Assembly: GCA_031378375.1 (NCBI GenBank)
Contig: JANNEF010000386.1
Coordinates: forward strand, 1,332-65,331
Direction of reading: 5' to 3'
Length of the DNA stretch: 64,000 bases
From: Verrucomicrobiota bacterium
Lineage (GTDB): Bacteria; Verrucomicrobiota; Verrucomicrobiia; Limisphaerales; JANNEF01
The notes under the pieces were generated by a model. That model was given only the letters and a program-made list of their open reading frames with translations. It was not told the origin of the DNA and made no database searches. Made by a program: the position numbers and the translations under genes. The first letter of the stretch is position 1; every line of letters starts with the position of its first letter. Positions 173 through 51,678 of this stretch are shown here, piece after piece.

Positions 173-1087
173 ATGTTAACGAAATTCAGTTTCCATGTTT
201 CACAGTTGAACTACATCAAGGGCGCGATGGCGTTGCTGCCCGCCTATCGGCCGGATGCCAAGACGGTGGCGCAGGTGGATGCCATCATCGCGGCGGCGCA
301 GCCGGTGCGCACGGCGTATCTGGACAAGCGCAGTTCGTTGCAGACGGCGCGCGCGGACCTGGGCGCGGCGCGCGTGGCGGCGCACGCGGCGGCGGTGAGT
401 GTGCAGCCGTTGATGAAGAGTGTGTATCGCACGGACCCGACGAGTTACGAGACGGTGGCGCGGCTGCCGGTGAAGGACCGCGCGGTGGCGGCGACGGTGA
501 CGCGCTGCGAGGCGGTGTCGAATTTGTGGAGCAAGCTGCCCAATCCGCCGGGCACGGCCACGCCGTTCGTGGCGGGGGAGTTGACGCGGGCGCAGTTCGA
601 CGCGTTGCTGGCCACGTTGCGCAGCAAACTGGTCGCGGTGTCGGGGTGTGATCAGGAGTTCCAGTTGAAGGAGGCGGAGTTGCACACGACGGACAACGCC
701 AACGCGCAGTTCATCATGGCCGCGCTCAAGCAGGGCCGGGCGCAGTTCAAGCGCGGCACGGAGGGGCGTGAGTTGATTGACGCCATCCCCACGCTGGCCA
801 ACACGCCGCTGCCGGGCCTGCCGGTGATTGACAGCGTGGAGGATCTGGGCGGCGGGAGCCTGATGCTCATCTTCATGGCGCTGCACGCGACGAGTTTCAA
901 AGTGTTCCACCAGGCGCCCGGCGCGACGGGGTTCACGCTGATCGCCGAGGAGGTGGAGGCGGGCGAGTACACGGTGGATAATCTCGCGGCGGGCGAACAC
1001 AAGTTCAAGGTGGTGGGCGTCAACTCGCGCGGCCAGGGCAAGCCCAGCGCGGTGAAGTTGTTCACGGTGCTGGCGGCGGCGGCGTAG
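173..1087 (+). CDS. Uncharacterised protein, helical N-terminal region plus C-terminal fibronectin type III-like domain
   Basis: 304-aa ORF with upstream AGGAG; C-terminal HKFKVVGVNSRGQGKPS FN3-like strand motif; paralogous to 50580-51491. Confidence 0.75.
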   Translation: MLTKFSFHVSQLNYIKGAMALLPAYRPDAKTVAQVDAIIAAAQPVRTAYLDKRSSLQTARADLGAARVAAHAAAVSVQPLMKSVYRTDPTSYETVARLPVKDRAVAATVTRCEAVSNLWSKLPNPPGTATPFVAGELTRAQFDALLATLRSKLVAVSGCDQEFQLKEAELHTTDNANAQFIMAALKQGRAQFKRGTEGRELIDAIPTLANTPLPGLPVIDSVEDLGGGSLMLIFMALHATSFKVFHQAPGATGFTLIAEEVEAGEYTVDNLAAGEHKFKVVGVNSRGQGKPSAVKLFTVLAAAA

Positions 1088-4091: not shown

Positions 4092-5411
4092 ATGCACCAC
4101 TACATCGAACAACTCGTTGACCTCACGGATTCCGCAGCCAACCAAATCTACAACATGACCGTCGAAGCGGCGCGCGCGCGTGTGCTGTCGGGCGGGCCCG
4201 AAGCCGTGCGCGACATCGAAGGTTCCTTCGCGCTCGTCGCGCGCGACGGCAAGACCGTCCGGCTCGCCCGGTCGCTGGACCGGCCGCTGCGTTACTTCCT
4301 CGCCAAGCGCGCGGAAGGGCCGGCGCTCGTCGTAGCCGACCGCATTGACGCCATCGCCGCGTGGCTCAAGGCGCAAGGCTACGGGAATCAATTCCATCCC
4401 AGCTACACGCGCATGGTGCCGGCGCATTACGTCATCGAAATCCAGCTCATCGGCTGTCCCGATCCCGACCCGACCTACACGCGCTTCTTCAACCCGCAAC
4501 GCAATGCGTTGCCGACGGACCTCGACGAGATCGGCCGCCGTTACATCGGCGCGCTGGCGGATGAAATCGCCAAGTGGCTGCGCCGTTTGCCGGAGCGCGA
4601 GCCGCTCGGCGTTTGTTTCTCCGGCGGCGTGGACAGCGGCGCGGTTTTCCTGACGGCTTATCATGTGATGCGCCAGCTCGGCCTTAGCCCGGCGCGCTTG
4701 AAGGCGTTCACGCTGAATTTCGGCGACGGCCCCGACTTGCAACAGGCGCGGGCGTTTCTGGAGAAGCTTGGGCTGGGTTTGTTCCTGGAACCCATCGAAG
4801 CTGACCTCGCCACGCTCGACGTGGCCGAGACCATCCGGATCGTTGAGGACTACAAGCCGCTCGACATCGAATCCGCCTCGATGGCGCTCACGCTCTGCCG
4901 TGGCATCCGCGCGCGTTACCCGGAGTGGCGTCACTTGATGGACGGTGACGGCGGCGACGAGAACTTGAAGGATTATCCCATCGAAGAAAACCCGGAGCTG
5001 ACCATCCGCAGCGTGGTGAGCAACCAGATGCTTTACCAGGAAGGCTGGGGCGTGGGGCGCATCAAGCACTCGCTCACTTACAGCGGCGGGTTGAGCCGCA
5101 GCTACGCGCGCACCTACGCGCCGGCGAAGCATTTTGGCTTCGAGGGGTTCAGCCCTTTCACCCGCCCCAATGTCATCGAAGTGGCCGAAGGCATCCCCTT
5201 CACCGAACTCACCGGCATGAGCGTGGAGAAACTTTACGCGCTCAAGGGCGAGATCGTTTCCCGTGGTGTGAAGGCCATCACCGGGCTGGACATGCCGGCG
5301 TTTCCGAAGCGGCGCTTCCAGCATGGCGCGGTGCCAGAAGAGCGGTTGCGACAGCGCGTCCCCGGGCGCGAGAACCTGATGCGCGATCAATTCCTTTCGC
5401 TTTATGCATAG
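4092..5411 (+). CDS. Asparagine synthetase-like ATP-dependent amide ligase lacking the N-terminal catalytic Cys
   Basis: PP-loop FSGGVDSG, DGDGGDE motif, remnant Ntn segment EGSFALV...LARSLDRPLRY. Confidence 0.8.
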   Translation: MHHYIEQLVDLTDSAANQIYNMTVEAARARVLSGGPEAVRDIEGSFALVARDGKTVRLARSLDRPLRYFLAKRAEGPALVVADRIDAIAAWLKAQGYGNQFHPSYTRMVPAHYVIEIQLIGCPDPDPTYTRFFNPQRNALPTDLDEIGRRYIGALADEIAKWLRRLPEREPLGVCFSGGVDSGAVFLTAYHVMRQLGLSPARLKAFTLNFGDGPDLQQARAFLEKLGLGLFLEPIEADLATLDVAETIRIVEDYKPLDIESASMALTLCRGIRARYPEWRHLMDGDGGDENLKDYPIEENPELTIRSVVSNQMLYQEGWGVGRIKHSLTYSGGLSRSYARTYAPAKHFGFEGFSPFTRPNVIEVAEGIPFTELTGMSVEKLYALKGEIVSRGVKAITGLDMPAFPKRRFQHGAVPEERLRQRVPGRENLMRDQFLSLYA

Positions 5412-7383: not shown

Positions 7384-8700
7384 ATGCAACCAATGAAAAC
7401 CTTTTACCGCTTCACCGCCGCTCTCGGCCTTGTGCTTGTGCCCGTCATGTTGCCGGCGGAAAACTGGCCGCAGTGGCGCGGACCTGATTTTAATGGCTCC
7501 ACGTCTGAAAAGGGTCTGCCCGCCACCTGGAGCAAAACCGACGGCGTCGCCTGGAGCGCGCCCCTGCCGGGCCCCAGCGGGGCAACCCCGGCGGTGTGGG
7601 GCGAGCATGTCTTTGTCTCCAGTCCCGACGCGCAGAAAAATCTGCTGCTGCTCTGTCTGAACCGGAAGGACGGTTCCCTGCGCTGGCAAAAAACCGTGGC
7701 CGTGGGCGACAAAAACAAAGGCAACAACAACATGGCATCGCCGTCGCCGGTCACGGACGGGAAGAGCGTATTTGTGCTCTACGGCACGAGCGATCTGGCG
7801 GCGTTTGACTTTGACGGCAAGGAGCTTTGGCATCGCAATCTGGGCAAGGATTACGGGAAGTTTTCAATCATGTGGATTTACGGCGCGAGTCCGCTGCTGT
7901 ACCAGGGCAAGCTTTACCTCGCCGTCTTGCAACGTGACCCGCCGCCGCGCGATTATCCGACCAGCGACGACGTTCCGACGCGCGAGTCGTTCCTGCTGTG
8001 CATTGATCCGAAAACCGGGAAAGACCTCTGGCGGCATGTCCGCAAGACCGACGCGACGATGGAATCGCAGGAGTCGTACACGACACCCATCCCGTATCAT
8101 GGCAAGCATGGGCTGGAGATTATTCTCGTCGGCGGCGACCACGTCAGCGGACACAACCCCGCCGCGCAGGGCGCGGAGCTTTGGCGGGCGCGCATGTATC
8201 AGAAGCGCGACGACTGGTATCGCATCGTCACGTCGCCCGTCACCTCGGAGGGCTTCATCTACGCCAGCGGCCCGAAAGGTCAGCCGGTCATCGCGGTGAA
8301 AGACGGTGGAAAAGGGAACGTGACCGAGAGCCACGTCGCATGGAGTTTCAAGGAGGCACCCACGGACTGGAGCACGCCGCTGTTGTATCAGGGGAAGCTG
8401 TTCATCCTCGACGGCGGGCGGAACACGATGAGTTGCCTTGACCCGAAGACCGGGGAGAAACAATGGTCCGGCAGCCTGGGGCTGACGGAGAAGACGTGGT
8501 CTTCACCCACGGGCGGGGACGGAAAAATTTATTGCTTCACCGAGAAGGGAAACGTCGTGGTGCTCTCGGCGGGCGACGACTTCAAGGTTCTTTCGACGAT
8601 TGCAATGGAGGAAGGCCCGTGCCGGTCGTCCATTGCGGTGGCGAGCGGACAATTGTTCATTCGCACGGCGAAGACTCTCTACTGCGTGGGGAAGAAGTAG
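7384..8700 (+). CDS. PQQ-binding-like beta-propeller repeat protein
   Basis: Signal peptide, NWPQWRGP, repeated SP/TG..LW blades. Confidence 0.9.
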   Translation: MQPMKTFYRFTAALGLVLVPVMLPAENWPQWRGPDFNGSTSEKGLPATWSKTDGVAWSAPLPGPSGATPAVWGEHVFVSSPDAQKNLLLLCLNRKDGSLRWQKTVAVGDKNKGNNNMASPSPVTDGKSVFVLYGTSDLAAFDFDGKELWHRNLGKDYGKFSIMWIYGASPLLYQGKLYLAVLQRDPPPRDYPTSDDVPTRESFLLCIDPKTGKDLWRHVRKTDATMESQESYTTPIPYHGKHGLEIILVGGDHVSGHNPAAQGAELWRARMYQKRDDWYRIVTSPVTSEGFIYASGPKGQPVIAVKDGGKGNVTESHVAWSFKEAPTDWSTPLLYQGKLFILDGGRNTMSCLDPKTGEKQWSGSLGLTEKTWSSPTGGDGKIYCFTEKGNVVVLSAGDDFKVLSTIAMEEGPCRSSIAVASGQLFIRTAKTLYCVGKK

Positions 8701-8810
8701 TTTTGGAGCGGCGAAGCGGTGGCACGCGAGGACGCGAACGCGGGGCAGTGTCAGTGATGGTTTTCACCCACCGGTTTGCTCTTCTGACTCATTCCGCTGA
8801 TTCCCGCCAA

Positions 8811-9326
8811 ATGATTCTGCCGCACAAAATCTCCACCCTGCTCTATTGCTTCAACGAGCGGGACGAGGTGCTGTTGATGGAACGGGCGCAGGAGCCGAAC
8901 CGGGGGTTGTGGAGTCCGTGCGGCGGCAAGCTGCACACGGAAGCGGGGGAATCGCCCCACGCCTGCGCCTGTCGCGAGGCGTGGGAGGAATTGGGCGAGG
9001 TGCTCGAACCGGCCGATCTGCACCTGACTGGCCTCGTGAGTGAACAGGGCTACGCGGGTCAGGCGCATTGGCTGATGTTCTTGTTCGAGGTGAAGCGGCG
9101 TCTGAAAATGCTCCCACCGCCGCATCGGGAAGGGGTGTTCCAGTTTTTTCCACCCGGCGCGCTCGCTTCCCTGAAACTGCCGCAGACGGATCGCGAGCAA
9201 ATCTGGCCGCTCTTCTGGCGGCATCGCGGCGGGTTTTTCGCCGCGCGCTGCCATTGCCATCCCGACGGGCACGATGAGTGGACGGTGGAACAGTCCACGC
9301 CTGCGCCAATGGCCAATCGCCAATAG
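8811..9326 (+). CDS. NUDIX hydrolase
   Basis: Nudix box GGKLHTEAGESPHACACREAWEELG; ATG at 8811. Confidence 0.85.
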   Translation: MILPHKISTLLYCFNERDEVLLMERAQEPNRGLWSPCGGKLHTEAGESPHACACREAWEELGEVLEPADLHLTGLVSEQGYAGQAHWLMFLFEVKRRLKMLPPPHREGVFQFFPPGALASLKLPQTDREQIWPLFWRHRGGFFAARCHCHPDGHDEWTVEQSTPAPMANRQ

Positions 9327-9341
9327 CCATCCAAAAATTCT

Positions 9342-9824
9342 ATGGACGAACCGATCATTGACCTGCAAAGCGACCATTACTTCATGGGCGAGGCGTTGCG
9401 CCAGGCTGCCCGCGCCTACGAGGCGGACGAAGTGCCGGTGGGTGCGGTCATCGTGCGCGAAGGCCGCGTCATCGCACGGGCGTGGAATCAGGTGGAATTG
9501 CTCAAGGACGCCACGGCCCACGCCGAGATGCTGGCACTGACGCAGGCCGAGGAAGCCGTGGGTGACTGGCGGTTGACGGACTGCACGCTGTACGTGACCA
9601 AGGAGCCGTGTCCGATGTGCGCCGGCGCCATCGTGCATACGCGATTGGCGCGGGTGGTGTTTGGCGTGGGTGATCCCAAGGGCGGCGCGGCGGGCGGCGC
9701 GATGAACCTGCTGCAATTCCCCTCGCTCAATCACCGCTGCGAAATCACATCCGGTGTGCGCGAGGTGGAAGGGCGGGCGCTGTTGAAAAGTTTTTTTGCG
9801 GAGCAGCGGCGGAAGGAGACGTAA
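9342..9824 (+). CDS. tadA: tRNA adenosine(34) deaminase
   Basis: EVPVGAV, HAE, EPCPMC motifs. Confidence 0.9.
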   Translation: MDEPIIDLQSDHYFMGEALRQAARAYEADEVPVGAVIVREGRVIARAWNQVELLKDATAHAEMLALTQAEEAVGDWRLTDCTLYVTKEPCPMCAGAIVHTRLARVVFGVGDPKGGAAGGAMNLLQFPSLNHRCEITSGVREVEGRALLKSFFAEQRRKET

Positions 9825-9883
9825 GCCGTGGTGCGTGAATTCGGTTCGTCCGTCCCGCGCGGTCTCACGCCACGCATCACGGC
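9825..9883. repeat. Inverted repeat between convergent genes (possible terminator or heptamer-type element)
   Basis: GCCGTGGTGCGTG ... CACGCATCACGGC, one mismatch. Confidence 0.6.
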
Positions 9884-10339
9884 CTACGCCGCCCGTTTGA
9901 GCATTTCGCGGTAGATGTGGAAAAACATGTCATTGTCCGCGACGGCCTTCTGGATGAGTTGAGTGAGCAGGAACATTTCCGAGGGGTTGACGACGGCGTG
10001 AACGCCCTGTTGGAAGGCTTGCAGCGGATTGAAAGTGGCGAGGTTGAACCCAAACAGCACCGCCACCGCGTGGCGTCGCAGGTTCATCGGCATCCTTTGA
10101 AGGGCAATGAGGCTCTCGTTTTCTTCCGGCGTGGAGGCGGAAAACAATTCCTCGAGGATCACCACCTGATAAGGCACCTGGGCGAACTTGTGCAGGAATT
10201 CGCCGTGATTGACGGCGACATGCACTTTGTAGCCGAGTTGGTCCAATGCGGTCTTGGAGGTGTCGAGCAGTTCGGGCGTGGACAAGCCCAGCAGCGCGGG
10301 CTTGTCCTCCGCCGTAAGAAAATCAAAGTCGGTCGCCAT
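9884..10339 (-). CDS. Hypothetical protein, degenerate receiver-like fold, in the pilT operon
   Basis: 151-aa ORF directly downstream of a PilT-family gene; LGYKVHVA...YQVVILEE pattern. Confidence 0.65.
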   Translation of the reverse strand: MATDFDFLTAEDKPALLGLSTPELLDTSKTALDQLGYKVHVAVNHGEFLHKFAQVPYQVVILEELFSASTPEENESLIALQRMPMNLRRHAVAVLFGFNLATFNPLQAFQQGVHAVVNPSEMFLLTQLIQKAVADNDMFFHIYREMLKRAA

Positions 10340-47827: not shown

Positions 47828-48076
47828 TTACCGAAATCGTTCGCTGCCGCTGGCGGTGGAATGTCCCAAAAAACAGCCCATGAACGTGAATCAGCTACCC
47901 TCTGCACCGGGCCACTATTGGCGCTCAAGCGCAAATTCATCGACGCGCGTCCGCCCCTCGTCGCTGGCCAGTCCGAGGTACGCGAATACCGCCCGCGCTA
48001 CCGCTTCGACGACCATGCCGTAAGGGAAATCATTTCAAACACAACCAACAACAACTCGCAAAAAACAAACAAACCA

Positions 48077-49321
48077 ATGAAAACAAATTCCAAAGACACC
48101 TGCTTATTGTCGCTCGTGATCGGATTACTAATGTGGGCCGGTAGTGCCAAAGCCCTGCCCGGCGGCACAATCTATGTCTGCAACTCTGGTGATGATACCG
48201 TTTCTGTCATCTCCCTTAACACGCTGACTGTGGTGACAAGCATCGCTGTGGGAGATGGCCCTGGCTTCGTCATTGTCACACCCGATGGCTCCAAAGCATA
48301 CGTTGCGAACAGGCTGGCAAATACTATCTCAGTAATTCGCACGAGTACGGATTCGGTAATCGCAACGATCCCAGTTGGAACTGAGCCAACTCAGATCGCG
48401 GTGAGTCGGGACAGCCAGCGCGTTTATGTGGCCAACAGGGGATCGTCCACCATTTCCATTATCGACACCGCATCGGACTCGATCCTCACCAACGTGCCAA
48501 CGTTTCGTTCTTCGCCAATCACGCTCGCGTTTCATCCAGTTCGCGACGAAGTGTGGGTGGGCTACAATAGCGGTCTGGAAGGCGGCGGCGCGATTGAAGC
48601 GCGATCCGCAACGGACCTCAGCTTGCTCGCCAGTCTTGTCTCTGACTTTATCTACTATGCTTCCGCTGACCTGGCGTTTCTCCCGGATGGCAGTGAGGTT
48701 TACGGTGCGGAGGGGTGCGGGGACTGCGGGCGGTACAACCGAATTTCCGGGAGCTATTCAAGCGGGGCTATCGACGCCATCGAGGCGACATTTTTTGAGG
48801 ATGGAAATGGTGCTGCCTTGGCCGTGGCCGTTAATCCGATCAGCAGCCGGGTCTATTTGGCGGGGCTGGGCCAGAGCGGACCTCACCGTGTGGTGGAATT
48901 CGACCGGAATGCAACGCCGCAGATCGGACGCACCGTCACCTTCAGCGCGGCACCCAGTGACCTCGTGGTTGCGCCCGATGGCCAGCGTATCTTCGTCGCG
49001 AATCAGGCTGCATCTGGTTTCGTTTCGGTCCTCGACACGGTGACATTCACTTCGGTGGGAACCGTGAACGTGGGCAACTCCCCCAGCGGCATCGCCATCA
49101 AACCGAATCCTCCCATAAATCTTACCATAGCGGTGGCCGATGTTCAGGTCTGTTGGAACTCATTATCCAACACCATTTATCAGGTCGAGTACAAGTCCGG
49201 GCTTACCACCAACACTTGGCAACCGTTAGGCCCACTTGTAAACGGCAATGGCTCGACAAATTGCATTGTTGACTCTGTCCTCATTGATCCACAACGCGTC
49301 TATCGTGTTCGCATACCGTAA
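48077..49321 (+). CDS. Secreted YVTN/YncE-type beta-propeller protein with Verrucomicrobia-style C-terminal domain
   Basis: Signal peptide; repeated PDG..YVAN..SNTISVID; C-terminal W.S...YQVEY...L..W...RVYRV. Confidence 0.85.
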   Translation: MKTNSKDTCLLSLVIGLLMWAGSAKALPGGTIYVCNSGDDTVSVISLNTLTVVTSIAVGDGPGFVIVTPDGSKAYVANRLANTISVIRTSTDSVIATIPVGTEPTQIAVSRDSQRVYVANRGSSTISIIDTASDSILTNVPTFRSSPITLAFHPVRDEVWVGYNSGLEGGGAIEARSATDLSLLASLVSDFIYYASADLAFLPDGSEVYGAEGCGDCGRYNRISGSYSSGAIDAIEATFFEDGNGAALAVAVNPISSRVYLAGLGQSGPHRVVEFDRNATPQIGRTVTFSAAPSDLVVAPDGQRIFVANQAASGFVSVLDTVTFTSVGTVNVGNSPSGIAIKPNPPINLTIAVADVQVCWNSLSNTIYQVEYKSGLTTNTWQPLGPLVNGNGSTNCIVDSVLIDPQRVYRVRIP

Positions 49322-49332
49322 AGAAAATCGCC

Positions 49333-49640
49333 GCGTTTCTGGCGCGGGGGATGACGCGCGGTATTTCCAAATCAGCGGGCCGGTGCAGCCGGGCAATTCG
49401 GGCGGGGCGCTGGTGGACGAGCGGGGCAACGTGGTGGGGGTGATGTCGGCCAAGTTGAGCGCGCGGGCGGCGCTGGCCGCGAGCGGGGCGTTGCCGGAAA
49501 ACGTGAATTACGTGGTGAAGAGCAGTTTCCTGCTGAGTTTCCTCGAATCCGTGCCGGAAGTGTCCGCCCGGCTCAAGGAACCGAACGCCCAGGAGCGGAA
49601 GTTTGAGGACATGATGAAGTCCACCGAACAAGCCTCCCCT
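49333..49640 (+). pseudogene. 5'-truncated trypsin-like serine protease fragment
   Basis: FQISGPVQPGNSGGALVDERGNVVGV...ENVNY; no catalytic His/Asp region and no start; boundaries approximate. Confidence 0.75.
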
Positions 49641-49751
49641 GCTGGTGCCGCTGGATTGAGCGATTTTTGCCACCTGGCAATCTTTGCCATCGTGTTTTTC
49701 GGCAACTATTGACCGCCGGAGGCGCGTCATCGCCCTGTTTTTGGACAGCGG

Positions 49752-50150
49752 TTCGCGCATTCGGGCTTCTCCCTCGCGTATTTTGGTTTCCGCCGCGCGC
49801 CAGTGTCCAATGGCGTCGCAAAGTTGGACACTTCGGCCGTCGCGGAGGGCTTTTCGGCGGCACGGGTTGCCTTCGGCCCGGCGCATTCCTCAATCCGTGT
49901 CGCGCATTTGGGCAAGCGTGTCGCATTTCAGGCCACGCGCCGCGCGCGGATGCCCGATTGCGCGCGCGGGGTGTCCATAATTGTGGCAAGTCTGGACACT
50001 GGCGTGCGGCGGAATCCTGATTGCGCTGCCCGGAAATCCGATGGTGTCGCGCCCATGCCCGGTTGCGCGTGGACGAGGGCCGTTCGTATCGCGCCGATGC
50101 CTGAATGCGTCGCCGGGATGGCCGAATGCACGCGGGAGGTGAACGGCGGG
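49752..50150. repeat. Degenerate 21-bp-periodic tandem array (19 units) with internal inversion
   Basis: Gap-free 21-nt phase; GC at unit positions 4-5 in 14 of 19 units; right-half units resemble reverse complements of left-half units. Confidence 0.7.
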
Positions 50151-50221
50151 ACGCGCACCAATGCTGCCTCGCGTCGTGGGAAGTCTTCGCGGGGCGGCCA
50201 GCTCGCCATGAACCGGAGCAC

Positions 50222-50356
50222 GGTAGGGACATCGCGCTGCGATGTCCCCGCCCGCGTTCAGCGGGCGGAATGAACTGGTCGGGGCGACCCGCCTTGCCCG
50301 CACACGCGTTGCGCCGCTGGACGCGGCGCGGACGGCGCGGCGCGCCCGTCCCTACC
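50222..50356. repeat. GTAG-type REP/REPIN-like element
   Basis: Terminal IR GGTAGGGAC/GTCCCTACC; internal hairpin GGGACATCGC-GCT-GCGATGTCCC. Confidence 0.8.
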
Positions 50357-50434
50357 TTCGATGGCTCATGGCCTTGACTCGTGTCATTCGTTGAAGGTTT
50401 TCCTTCACCATGAACTTTCCCCGTTCCGCATAAA

Positions 50435-50450
50435 TGGCACCGTCATTGCT
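50435..50450 (+). promoter_or_regulatory. Sigma54 (-24/-12) promoter
   Basis: TGGCAC-CGTCA-TTGCT, about 130 bp upstream of the ATG at 50580. Confidence 0.7.
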
Positions 50451-50579
50451 TCCCAAATCAACAGGATAAAATGGCTTTCATGCCCGCCATCCAAAAAGTG
50501 CAAACCGGTTCACGGCCCGGTGGCGGAATGACTCCGCCCCGGACTTGCGCCGGAGAAAAACTACAACCAGGGACCAAAT

Positions 50580-51491
50580 ATGATCAGCATTGAACACACG
50601 AAGAATCGCGCGGAGAAAACCCGTGACGCCCAGGTGAACCTGGCCGCCGCGCCCGGATGGGTGTGGAGCAAGAAGACGGTGATCCAGTGGAACACGGACA
50701 TCACCCTGCTCGAACAATGCACCGCCGATGAAAGCGCCAAGCGCGTGCAGTGGCGCAACGCCGCCGAATCATGGCAGTCGGACATCAACCAGATCCAGGC
50801 CATCACCCGGCTGGTCGCCAGCATTGGCCGCGTGCAGTTCCAGGATGATCCGGTGAAGGTGATCCTCTTCGACCGCATCCGCACGGACGGGGAAGGGCGC
50901 AACGACATTTACGAACAAGGCGTGGTGGCGCGCGACGTGTGGCAGGAGGTGGACATGGAGTGGGAGCTTTCGGAGGTCTTCACCCTGTCCTTCCTCAGTT
51001 CACTGCTGACCGCGGCTTTGGCGCGCAAGGGGACGCACGGCACCAAGGAGACGACCTGGCGGCGGGCCGAGGCGGCGCTGACGGTGAAGGCGCGGGCGCT
51101 GCATAAAGCCAACGTGGCCTGGTACACGGAGGCCACGCGGCGCTTCGCCGAGGACACGGAGGAAGGCGCCACCATCCGCACGACCATCCCGACTTCCTCG
51201 CGCCCGGAACGGCTGGTGCGCCAGGCGATCATTTCCAACGTGACGGTGTCGGGCGGAGACATCCAGTTTTCTTGTTCCGCGCCCAACGCGACGCGCTACA
51301 CGATTCTGCATCAACCCCCCGGCGCGACGGCCTTCGTGGTGTTGGTGGCCGACACCGCGGAGGAGAGCGTGACGCTCCACGGGCAGCCGGCCGGGCAGCA
51401 CAAGTTCAAGGTAATCGGGAGGAATTCCCGGGGCGAAGGCCCGGAGAGCGCGGTGACGGAAGTGACGGTGGCCGCGCAGGCGGCAGCGTAG
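50580..51491 (+). CDS. Uncharacterised helical plus FN3-like protein (paralog of 173-1087)
   Basis: 303 aa; HQPPGATAF...HKFKVIGRNSRGEGPES. Confidence 0.75.
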   Translation: MISIEHTKNRAEKTRDAQVNLAAAPGWVWSKKTVIQWNTDITLLEQCTADESAKRVQWRNAAESWQSDINQIQAITRLVASIGRVQFQDDPVKVILFDRIRTDGEGRNDIYEQGVVARDVWQEVDMEWELSEVFTLSFLSSLLTAALARKGTHGTKETTWRRAEAALTVKARALHKANVAWYTEATRRFAEDTEEGATIRTTIPTSSRPERLVRQAIISNVTVSGGDIQFSCSAPNATRYTILHQPPGATAFVVLVADTAEESVTLHGQPAGQHKFKVIGRNSRGEGPESAVTEVTVAAQAAA

Positions 51492-51678
51492 CCGGAGCGG
51501 GGGCACGCGCCCATCCCGGCTGCCCCCGAAAGCCGCAATGGCAGGCTGATGGATCGCCGTTGGTATTCCCGTCGCGAGAAGCGCCTTCGGAATTCCGAAC
51601 CGCATCAAAAATCCCCGCTCGCCACGGAACGCGCTCTGCTTCATGGTGCTTGTGAAGAGTCCACGCTCAATCGCAACG

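Follow-up and report, generated by a model that had tools for sequence, protein, structure and literature searches.

Upstream of an orphan gene in the window, the 64,000-nt stretch of Verrucomicrobiota DNA analysed here, lies a tract (49752–50150) that an earlier note, made from the sequence alone, had described as a cryptic array of diverged 21-nt units that reverses its orientation midway. This raises the question of whether such a tract is a worn protein gene, a structured RNA, selfish repeat DNA or a control region for the gene behind it.

Cut at 21-nt steps, the tract yields 19 units with no gaps. Its self-identity at lag 21 reaches 0.455, against 0.279 expected from 1000 dinucleotide-preserving shuffles (z 7.66, 0/1000), a z above the benchmark of 3.2 given by the 95th percentile of the best z across 60 lags in the shuffles; lag 42 gives 0.398 (z 5.0, 0/1000 shuffles). 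The units within the tract are about 0.48 identical to one another, and TRF reported no repeat in a run on the tract because the units are too diverged. To assess the reversal of orientation, the nine units on the right (49941–50129) were used to derive a weight matrix. All nine of these score 8–20.5 bits in phase 0, and the left half holds reverse-strand matches to the same matrix at 49757, 49778, 49862, 49883 and 49904, again in that phase. The top five reverse-strand scores sum to 45.1 versus 6.4 ± 6.9 in 500 shuffles (0/500). The inverted pairs picked out in the earlier note were recovered on recomputation (49901–49914 with 49951–49964 at 12/14, and 49754–49766 with 50099–50111 at 10/13). 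As for the proposed fold-back centre near 49932, the orientation does flip there, but the best long register, with 84-nt arms that are 63% complementary against a random-segment null of 0.46 ± 0.035, is centred at about 49901, 31 nt away.

An open plus-strand frame spans 49803–50273, and two minus-strand frames are likewise open. The absence of a credible protein, already suspected from the letters, is borne out by the searches: Pfam at E ≤ 0.1 returned no match for four long open frames over the tract, and no homolog was found with the plus-strand frame 49803–50273. Self-identity at lag 3 is 0.222 (z −2.4 under the shuffle null), so the tract has no codon period. Together with the mid-tract flip, these results argue against a decayed heptad-repeat protein gene, which had been named as one of the findings that would overturn the array. 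The tract is a real but worn non-coding array of 21-base repeats at the pitch of two helical turns, with half of it flipped. It is not a CRISPR array either, as its 21-nt units are contiguous and without spacers.

The earlier note had offered a long structured RNA as one meaning of the array. Transcribed, the fold-back would form a long hairpin RNA that could act as a regulator, terminator or insulator or be processed into small RNAs, and two observations are in keeping with this: the array begins 40 nt past the stop codon of the upstream 154-aa ORF, and the plus-strand fold of the tract (−225.1 kcal/mol versus −200.3 ± 6.5 for shuffled sequences; z −3.8, 0/100) contains a helix of about 25 bp built from a 22-nt inverted repeat. 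Fold energy is not specific evidence here, because any fold-back DNA folds well as RNA, and the minus strand reaches a z of just −1.9. Furthermore, the Rfam 15 covariance models gave 0 matches at E ≤ 1 over 48500–51500, the array lies upstream of the gene's promoter motif rather than in its leader, and no convincing promoter was found for the array itself, the sole match being sigma70-like and on the minus strand. Some units at other loci are loop-less palindromes such as CACGTG, which suit the recognition of duplex DNA better than hairpins. We regard the RNA explanation as very unlikely.

The features of the locus are collected in Table 1. Both 29-bp palindromes lie where they had been described, and they form the inner ends of the 22-nt inverted repeat. 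The 21/22 match between the arms of this repeat was reached in 0/300 mononucleotide shuffles (maximum 19) and in 0/300 shuffles of unit order and orientation (maximum 20), and the 22-mer has no second occurrence elsewhere in the genome. This dyad is the best-kept part of the array.

Table 1 Features of the array locus (positions within the window).
Feature	Position	Strand	Description
Array, distal arm	49752–49940	−	nine 21-nt units; register from lag-21 cutting
Left arm of 22-nt inverted repeat	49788–49809	+	21/22 match to right arm
Palindrome 1	49803–49831		GTGTCCA-N15-TGGACAC, 29 bp
Array, proximal arm	49941–50150	+	nine forward units and a weaker last one; consensus GTCGCGCGGATGCCCGATTGC
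Palindrome 2	49971–49999		GTGTCCA-N15-TGGACAC, 29 bp; 168 nt (8 units) from palindrome 1
Right arm of 22-nt inverted repeat	49993–50014	−	21/22 match to left arm
Palindromic dispersed repeat, ~135 nt	50217–50356		ends GTAGGGAC...GTCCCTAC; between array and promoter, separate from array
Sigma54-type −24/−12 motif	50435–50450	+	TGGCAC-N5-TTGC-T, motif match only; 145 nt ahead of ATG
Orphan gene, 303 aa	50580–51491	+	long-helix bundle (residues 1–202) and C-terminal FN3 domain (217–297)

As had been noted from the sequence, the array precedes a sigma54-type motif (core TGGCAC-N5-TTGC, 50435–50449) and the FN3 gene; it ends about 285 nt ahead of the motif. The 135-nt element inserted in between has 56 BLAST matches within the genome and looks like a REPIN-type element, "REPIN-like" being our own label; GTAG-type ends belong to this element, and the array is without them. 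By their coordinates, copies of the element also adjoin other paralogs of the FN3 family (contigs C231, C407, C127 and C118). The sigma54 machinery is present in the genome as one rpoN and eight full enhancer-binding proteins, and a loose form of the motif occurs upstream of 12 of 19 paralogs (a raw count). As a general partner of the arrays the motif was rejected: in its strict form it lies near four arrays of the genome versus 1.2 expected. For two of the eight enhancer-binding-protein genes, a 21-bp array is present no more than 400 nt away (G000:C143:7966–9408 with an array at 9770–9953, and G000:C272:3005–4498 with an array at 4564–4824).

The AlphaFold (AF2) model of the 303-aa protein is of high confidence (pLDDT 92; 95 for the N-terminal part alone) and includes two helices of about 50 residues in the N-terminal bundle. 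Clear structural relatives exist for the FN3 part only. The helical part gives generic helical fold matches, the best at Z 9.2 where the caution level for helical bundles is 13, it matches nothing in BFVD, and no DNA-binding fold for the N-terminal domain is found among the structural matches. Pfam, NCBIfam and PADLOC assign the protein to no family at E ≤ 0.01, and PHROGs gives a weak tail-fibre J match on the FN3 region (E 0.0036). In the ESM Atlas the protein falls among clusters of hypothetical proteins, commonest in Verrucomicrobiota, and the helical+FN3 family comprises at least 25 Atlas clusters with 50 or more members. The genome itself carries about 14 paralogs of the gene and about six genes of a shorter helical+FN3 family, and the paralogs share a conserved Ala-rich C-terminal tail (...VAAQAAA, ...VAQAAAA). 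One of them is the first gene of the window (173–1087), which has its own 21-bp array (core GGGGCAG/GGGACAG; G000:C141:932–1205) and a TGGCAT-N5-TTGC motif (G000:C141, 1305), both just off the left window edge.

A search of 120 other genomes from this order recovered homologs of the gene in nine, and 1200 nt on each side of every locus were searched for a lag-21 array (identity at least 0.45 and z at least 5). In these other genomes an array lies upstream at 11 of 13 loci and downstream at 1 of 13; the corresponding counts are 6/10 and 0/12 in the own genome, and 1/5 and 0/3 for metagenome loci. The 11 positive foreign loci have lag-21 identities of 0.48–0.70 (z 7–18), and TRF independently gives arrays of period 21, 42 or 63 in three of them. 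By eye, the distance from the end of the array to the gene start or to a promoter-like box ranges from a few tens of nt to about 300 nt; the box has the sequence TGGCAC-N5-TTGC at this locus and its close homologs, and TTGACA at those of G119 and G113. The layout with an inverted distal and a forward proximal block is seen again in L052, L065, L069 and L070. Within the own genome, 8 of the 13 FN3-family members with at least 750 nt of upstream sequence carry one of the genome's 85 strictly detected arrays no more than 1 kb upstream, versus 102 of 5043 crude gene calls (2%; Fisher p 2.5e-11, with paralogs that are not independent). No other family of similar size shows enrichment; a 270-aa orphan family reaches 3/7. 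The array-gene link is conserved in the order, and the position of the array upstream of the gene family is kept across genera.

Two of the orthologs, L069 and L070, come from different families of the order, and their proteins are 68% identical (156/231). In an alignment of upstream regions, read for these two loci only, their arrays run in register through the flip point, which should not be expected of neutral non-coding DNA. Over all 171 pairs, unit similarity against protein identity gave a Spearman coefficient of 0.08 (p 0.29), so turnover of the units is fast compared with the divergence of paralogs. No rate information came from the near-identical metagenome pairs (L020 = L021, L023 ~ L024). 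No conserved neighbour gene that could encode a binder is shared by three 10-kb foreign loci, and from these unrelated neighbourhoods array, promoter and gene appear to behave as a self-contained cassette. Two further searches for relatives came back empty: a pattern search of genome contigs from three paralogs gave 82 matches, none encoding a relative, and the single 303-aa protein had no match at E ≤ 1e-10 in the nearest 40 genomes, all of the same order.

Since the array-gene pairing recurs in related Verrucomicrobia, the array probably represents an undescribed control region. For the tract itself we favour, tentatively and with slightly less than even confidence, a control region in which a putative protein binds helically phased sites and so governs the sigma54-type promoter and the FN3 gene. 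The tract would belong, as a diverged example, to a lineage-specific array class with short sites every 21 bp; as 21 bp make two helical turns, all sites would face one side of the helix, in a distal block inverted relative to the promoter-proximal one. A sequence-specific DNA-binding protein may load cooperatively on the phased sites and, once loaded, control the promoter directly downstream, in whichever direction. Given the sigma54-type promoter downstream, an enhancer-binding protein could be the binder; the candidates are one of the eight encoded in the genome and, more speculatively, the FN3 gene's own product. Functionally, the tract could then be likened to an operator array of the iteron type or to an upstream activating sequence of extended length. 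The copy is worn, with a unit identity of about 0.48, and a repeat has been inserted before its promoter, so any activity may be weak or confined to the best-preserved elements, namely the 22-nt inverted repeat and the two palindromes. Upstream of the −24 element, the TGTCCA-N15-TGGACA dyads are found at distances of about 440 and 630 nt, a long way off for a classical enhancer, even if the inserted repeat accounts for about 140 nt of it.

The arrays reach well beyond this gene family. The whole 6.6-Mb assembly was scanned in 300-nt windows for the lag, from 4 to 80, that gives the highest self-identity (at least 0.45). Lag 21 came first at 67 loci, while lag 42 did so at 76 and lag 63 at 33, and every other lag at 12 loci or fewer; the period-21 class thus accounts for most tandem periodicity of the genome. 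With a stricter detector, 85 period-21 arrays of at least 150 nt are found in the genome, with a median length of 252 nt. Nine of them overlap long ORFs and are possibly coding, and 26 have no called gene on one side, which is often the contig end; with many arrays near contig ends, the class appears to break assemblies. The remaining 50 fall between divergent (13), convergent (13) and tandem (24) genes in the random 1:1:2 ratio, and the class is therefore placed at random relative to gene direction. The proposed partnership of array and helical+FN3 gene stands as a link at the gene family, but the array type is not specific to that family: with 85 arrays, most of them beside unrelated genes and in random orientation, "one system" is too narrow a name for the class. 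That most arrays lie away from FN3 genes counts against the control-region reading, as do the 13 arrays between convergent genes, which have no promoter to serve.

Many of the arrays group into small sequence families with 70–92% identity and shared ends. The well-kept families consist of a forward-unit block, a flip and an inverted-unit block between conserved ends, and core variants are common to both arms of one element. Fold-back arms (84 nt) exceed the 99th percentile of random segments in 42 of the 85 arrays. Such multi-copy families look like mobile or duplicated DNA, which again counts against a control region, and selfish fold-back repeat DNA is the main rival to it. The tract would then be selfish or neutral, the decayed remains of a fold-back minisatellite or of a MITE-like element whose family spreads or is duplicated across intergenic DNA, with a 21-bp period merely inherited from an ancestral unit; the FN3 upstream regions, being long, would tolerate or attract insertions, or array and gene would duplicate together. 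The random orientation of the class, its families and its fold-back arms all speak for this account, as do the strong divergence of the tract copy, the presence of the 135-nt element in this and other FN3 upstream regions, and the unrelated neighbourhoods of the foreign FN3 genes, as expected of a moving cassette. Nevertheless, an array upstream at 11 of 13 loci and downstream at 1 of 13 across genera is hard to obtain by neutral insertion, and so is an array alignable between orthologs whose proteins have diverged as far as L069 and L070. The tract array is also single-copy: neither BLAST nor the tract's own weight matrix finds a relative in the genome, and the units are absent elsewhere, like the 22-mer. 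Hence a foldback or MITE-type mobile element, which would be multi-copy with conserved ends, does not describe the tract, though other arrays do form families.

No transposase is consistently adjacent to the arrays. The genome has three full Y1 transposase genes, and one of four Y1 genes examined has an array nearby, so a RAYT link to the arrays was rejected. The one case, on C214, is a clean fold-back array (core GAATCTTTTT / AAAAAGATTC; G000:C214:7934–8227) 144 nt from a RAYT-like Y1 gene at 8351–8893; the other three have no clear array within 1.5 kb, their best 200-nt lag-21 identity being 0.37–0.42 versus 0.56 at C214.

The pattern of conservation within units bears on the same choice. 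Column conservation is over-dispersed relative to uniform-divergence simulations in 36 of 75 arrays (by a crude star-tree simulation), and conserved columns cluster across arrays (autocorrelation 0.135 versus −0.049). A conserved core with a variable spacer, in about half of the arrays, is what would be expected of binding sites and is not readily accounted for by selfish repeats; in the tract itself the column pattern is not clearly of this kind. We consider selfish repeat DNA an unlikely explanation of the tract, though one to be taken seriously.

The fixed period could also have an architectural basis. In that case the array would be read by shape, with in-phase bends producing curved or superhelical DNA that aids looping to the sigma54 promoter or the binding of nucleoid proteins. 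This would explain why the period is fixed and the sequences free: periods of 21, 42 and 63 dominate the genome scan, the units are very diverse, private to one locus or small family and unrelated between loci, and the array here lies upstream of a promoter type that depends on looping. On the other hand, an inherited period accounts for period-locking without selection, it is not obvious what the orientation flip would contribute to curvature, and the conserved units of L069 and L070, together with the conserved cores, suggest that sequence matters. A purely architectural role is distinctly improbable to our minds.

Sequence-specific recognition leaves the nature of the binder to be considered. 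The units differ between paralogs of one genome, so one shared binder for the predicted control regions is unlikely. A bolder possibility, by analogy with Rep proteins and iterons, is that each helical+FN3 paralog uses its long-helix domain of about 75 angstrom to bind a 21-bp array private to it, with one protein per two-turn unit, and thereby autoregulates; we hold this to be a long shot. If true, such self-recognising cassettes would constitute a new class of array-reading DNA-binding proteins from an orphan family abundant in Verrucomicrobiota, with a specificity that co-diversifies with the repeats as the cassette duplicates.

The half-sites of the tract palindromes recur in part of the class. 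TGTCC/GGACA is phased in 9 of the 85 arrays versus 0.13 expected, and also in L026; in-phase half-sites are found in the tract, in the array before the window's first gene, in C448 and in L026. TGTCC-N-GGACA dyads give 10 hits at 7 of the 85 arrays versus about one expected, and 17-bp dyads of the form TGTCC-N7-GGACA sit exactly on array borders at G000:C194:29565, C279:11384, C384:23323 and C64:17024. The motif is not a universal key, because it is absent from most arrays, and phased GGACA as a universal core was rejected, being present in 3 of 10 listed FN3-adjacent arrays. Three or four GGACA at 21-bp pitch are no more frequent in the own genome than a reversed control. In the order, 23 of 201 genomes matched this pattern, some inside very long open frames, and one of 20 retrieved loci has an FN3-type gene (L028, of the shorter subfamily). 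On the contigs of L032 and L038 (G099, G104), G058 and G186, the GGACA-phased 21-nt repeats extend for kilobases; those of L032 and L038 lie inside open frames of more than 1000 aa and so probably encode heptad-repeat proteins rather than belonging to this array class. A loose search for a common header motif (GTGTCC..AATGGGGCAG) gave 282 matches, 10 of them near arrays.

Among known systems, the tract falls short of full membership of iterons with Rep, sigma54 upstream activating sequences, REP clusters/BIMEs, CRISPR and known RNAs. Iterons accompany a cognate Rep gene in theta-type plasmids (R6K, RK2, pSC101, P1 and F) as direct repeats of 17–22 bp at a pitch of about 22 bp next to the rep promoter, with a private repeat for each replicon. 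The tract is alike in having direct repeats at about two-turn pitch (21 bp, z 7.7, in agreement with the iteron pitch) directly upstream of one gene's promoter, with inverted copies nearby. However, the downstream protein is a long-helix bundle with FN3 rather than a winged-helix Rep, about 14 copies sit in unrelated chromosomal contexts per genome, and the arrays are longer (9+9 units).

Sigma54 upstream activating sequences bind enhancer-binding proteins (NtrC; NifA at TGT-N10-ACA), and the classical ones consist of two or three dyads about 80–200 bp upstream. The locus shares with them the −24 GG / −12 GC motif downstream (a motif match only), TGT...ACA-type dyads upstream, and a genome with rpoN and eight enhancer-binding proteins. 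It differs in its ~18 phased units over 400 bp, and in that the G119 and G113 homologs keep the array but with a TTGACA box. The closest functional analogues of the tract are a sigma54 upstream activating sequence, here over-long, and iterons paired with a Rep gene.

REP clusters and BIMEs, known with RAYT transposases from E. coli and Pseudomonas, are made of GTAG-tagged hairpin units in alternating orientation. Similar are the clustered, species-specific, intergenic short repeats with dyad symmetry and the Y1 transposase genes in the genome; unlike them, the array unit consensus has no GTAG, two same-orientation blocks with a single flip replace the alternation, and one Y1 gene adjoins an array. 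Eukaryotic foldback transposons (Drosophila FB, Galileo) also have long inverted arms of tandem sub-repeats; apart from being eukaryotic, they differ from the tract array, for which no transposase, terminal conserved ends or other copies were found.

A full-text literature search returned no description of such arrays in its listings and the openings of abstracts. New in the present analysis are the count of arrays over the whole genome, the finding that the class is placed at random, the upstream/downstream test across genera and the ortholog alignment. If the arrays are control platforms, they would represent a lineage-wide cis-regulatory design in Verrucomicrobiota with a constant pitch but sequence turnover, linked to an orphan gene family of considerable size (14 copies in this genome). 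The arrays would also offer a testable handle on an unknown protein family and on an unexplained bacterial repeat class.

Several minor observations concern the surroundings of the arrays. A 42-nt periodic stretch in L023 was set aside since it looked coding by eye. Heptamer arrays, (GATTACT)n and (TGGCGGG)n, stand directly beside 21-bp arrays upstream of FN3 homologs (L026:43–118, and L060 at about −550 to −466 from the gene), suggesting, tentatively, that the 7-nt and 21-nt repeat classes are connected. The 154-aa ORF ahead of the tract (49248–49712) corresponds to the C-terminal third of a trypsin-like peptidase only and overlaps the end of the beta-propeller ORF 47861–49321; truncation of a paralog, or a frameshifted fusion with that ORF, may explain it. 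It is 87% identical over 339 nt to C197:371–708, where an array follows the gene too.
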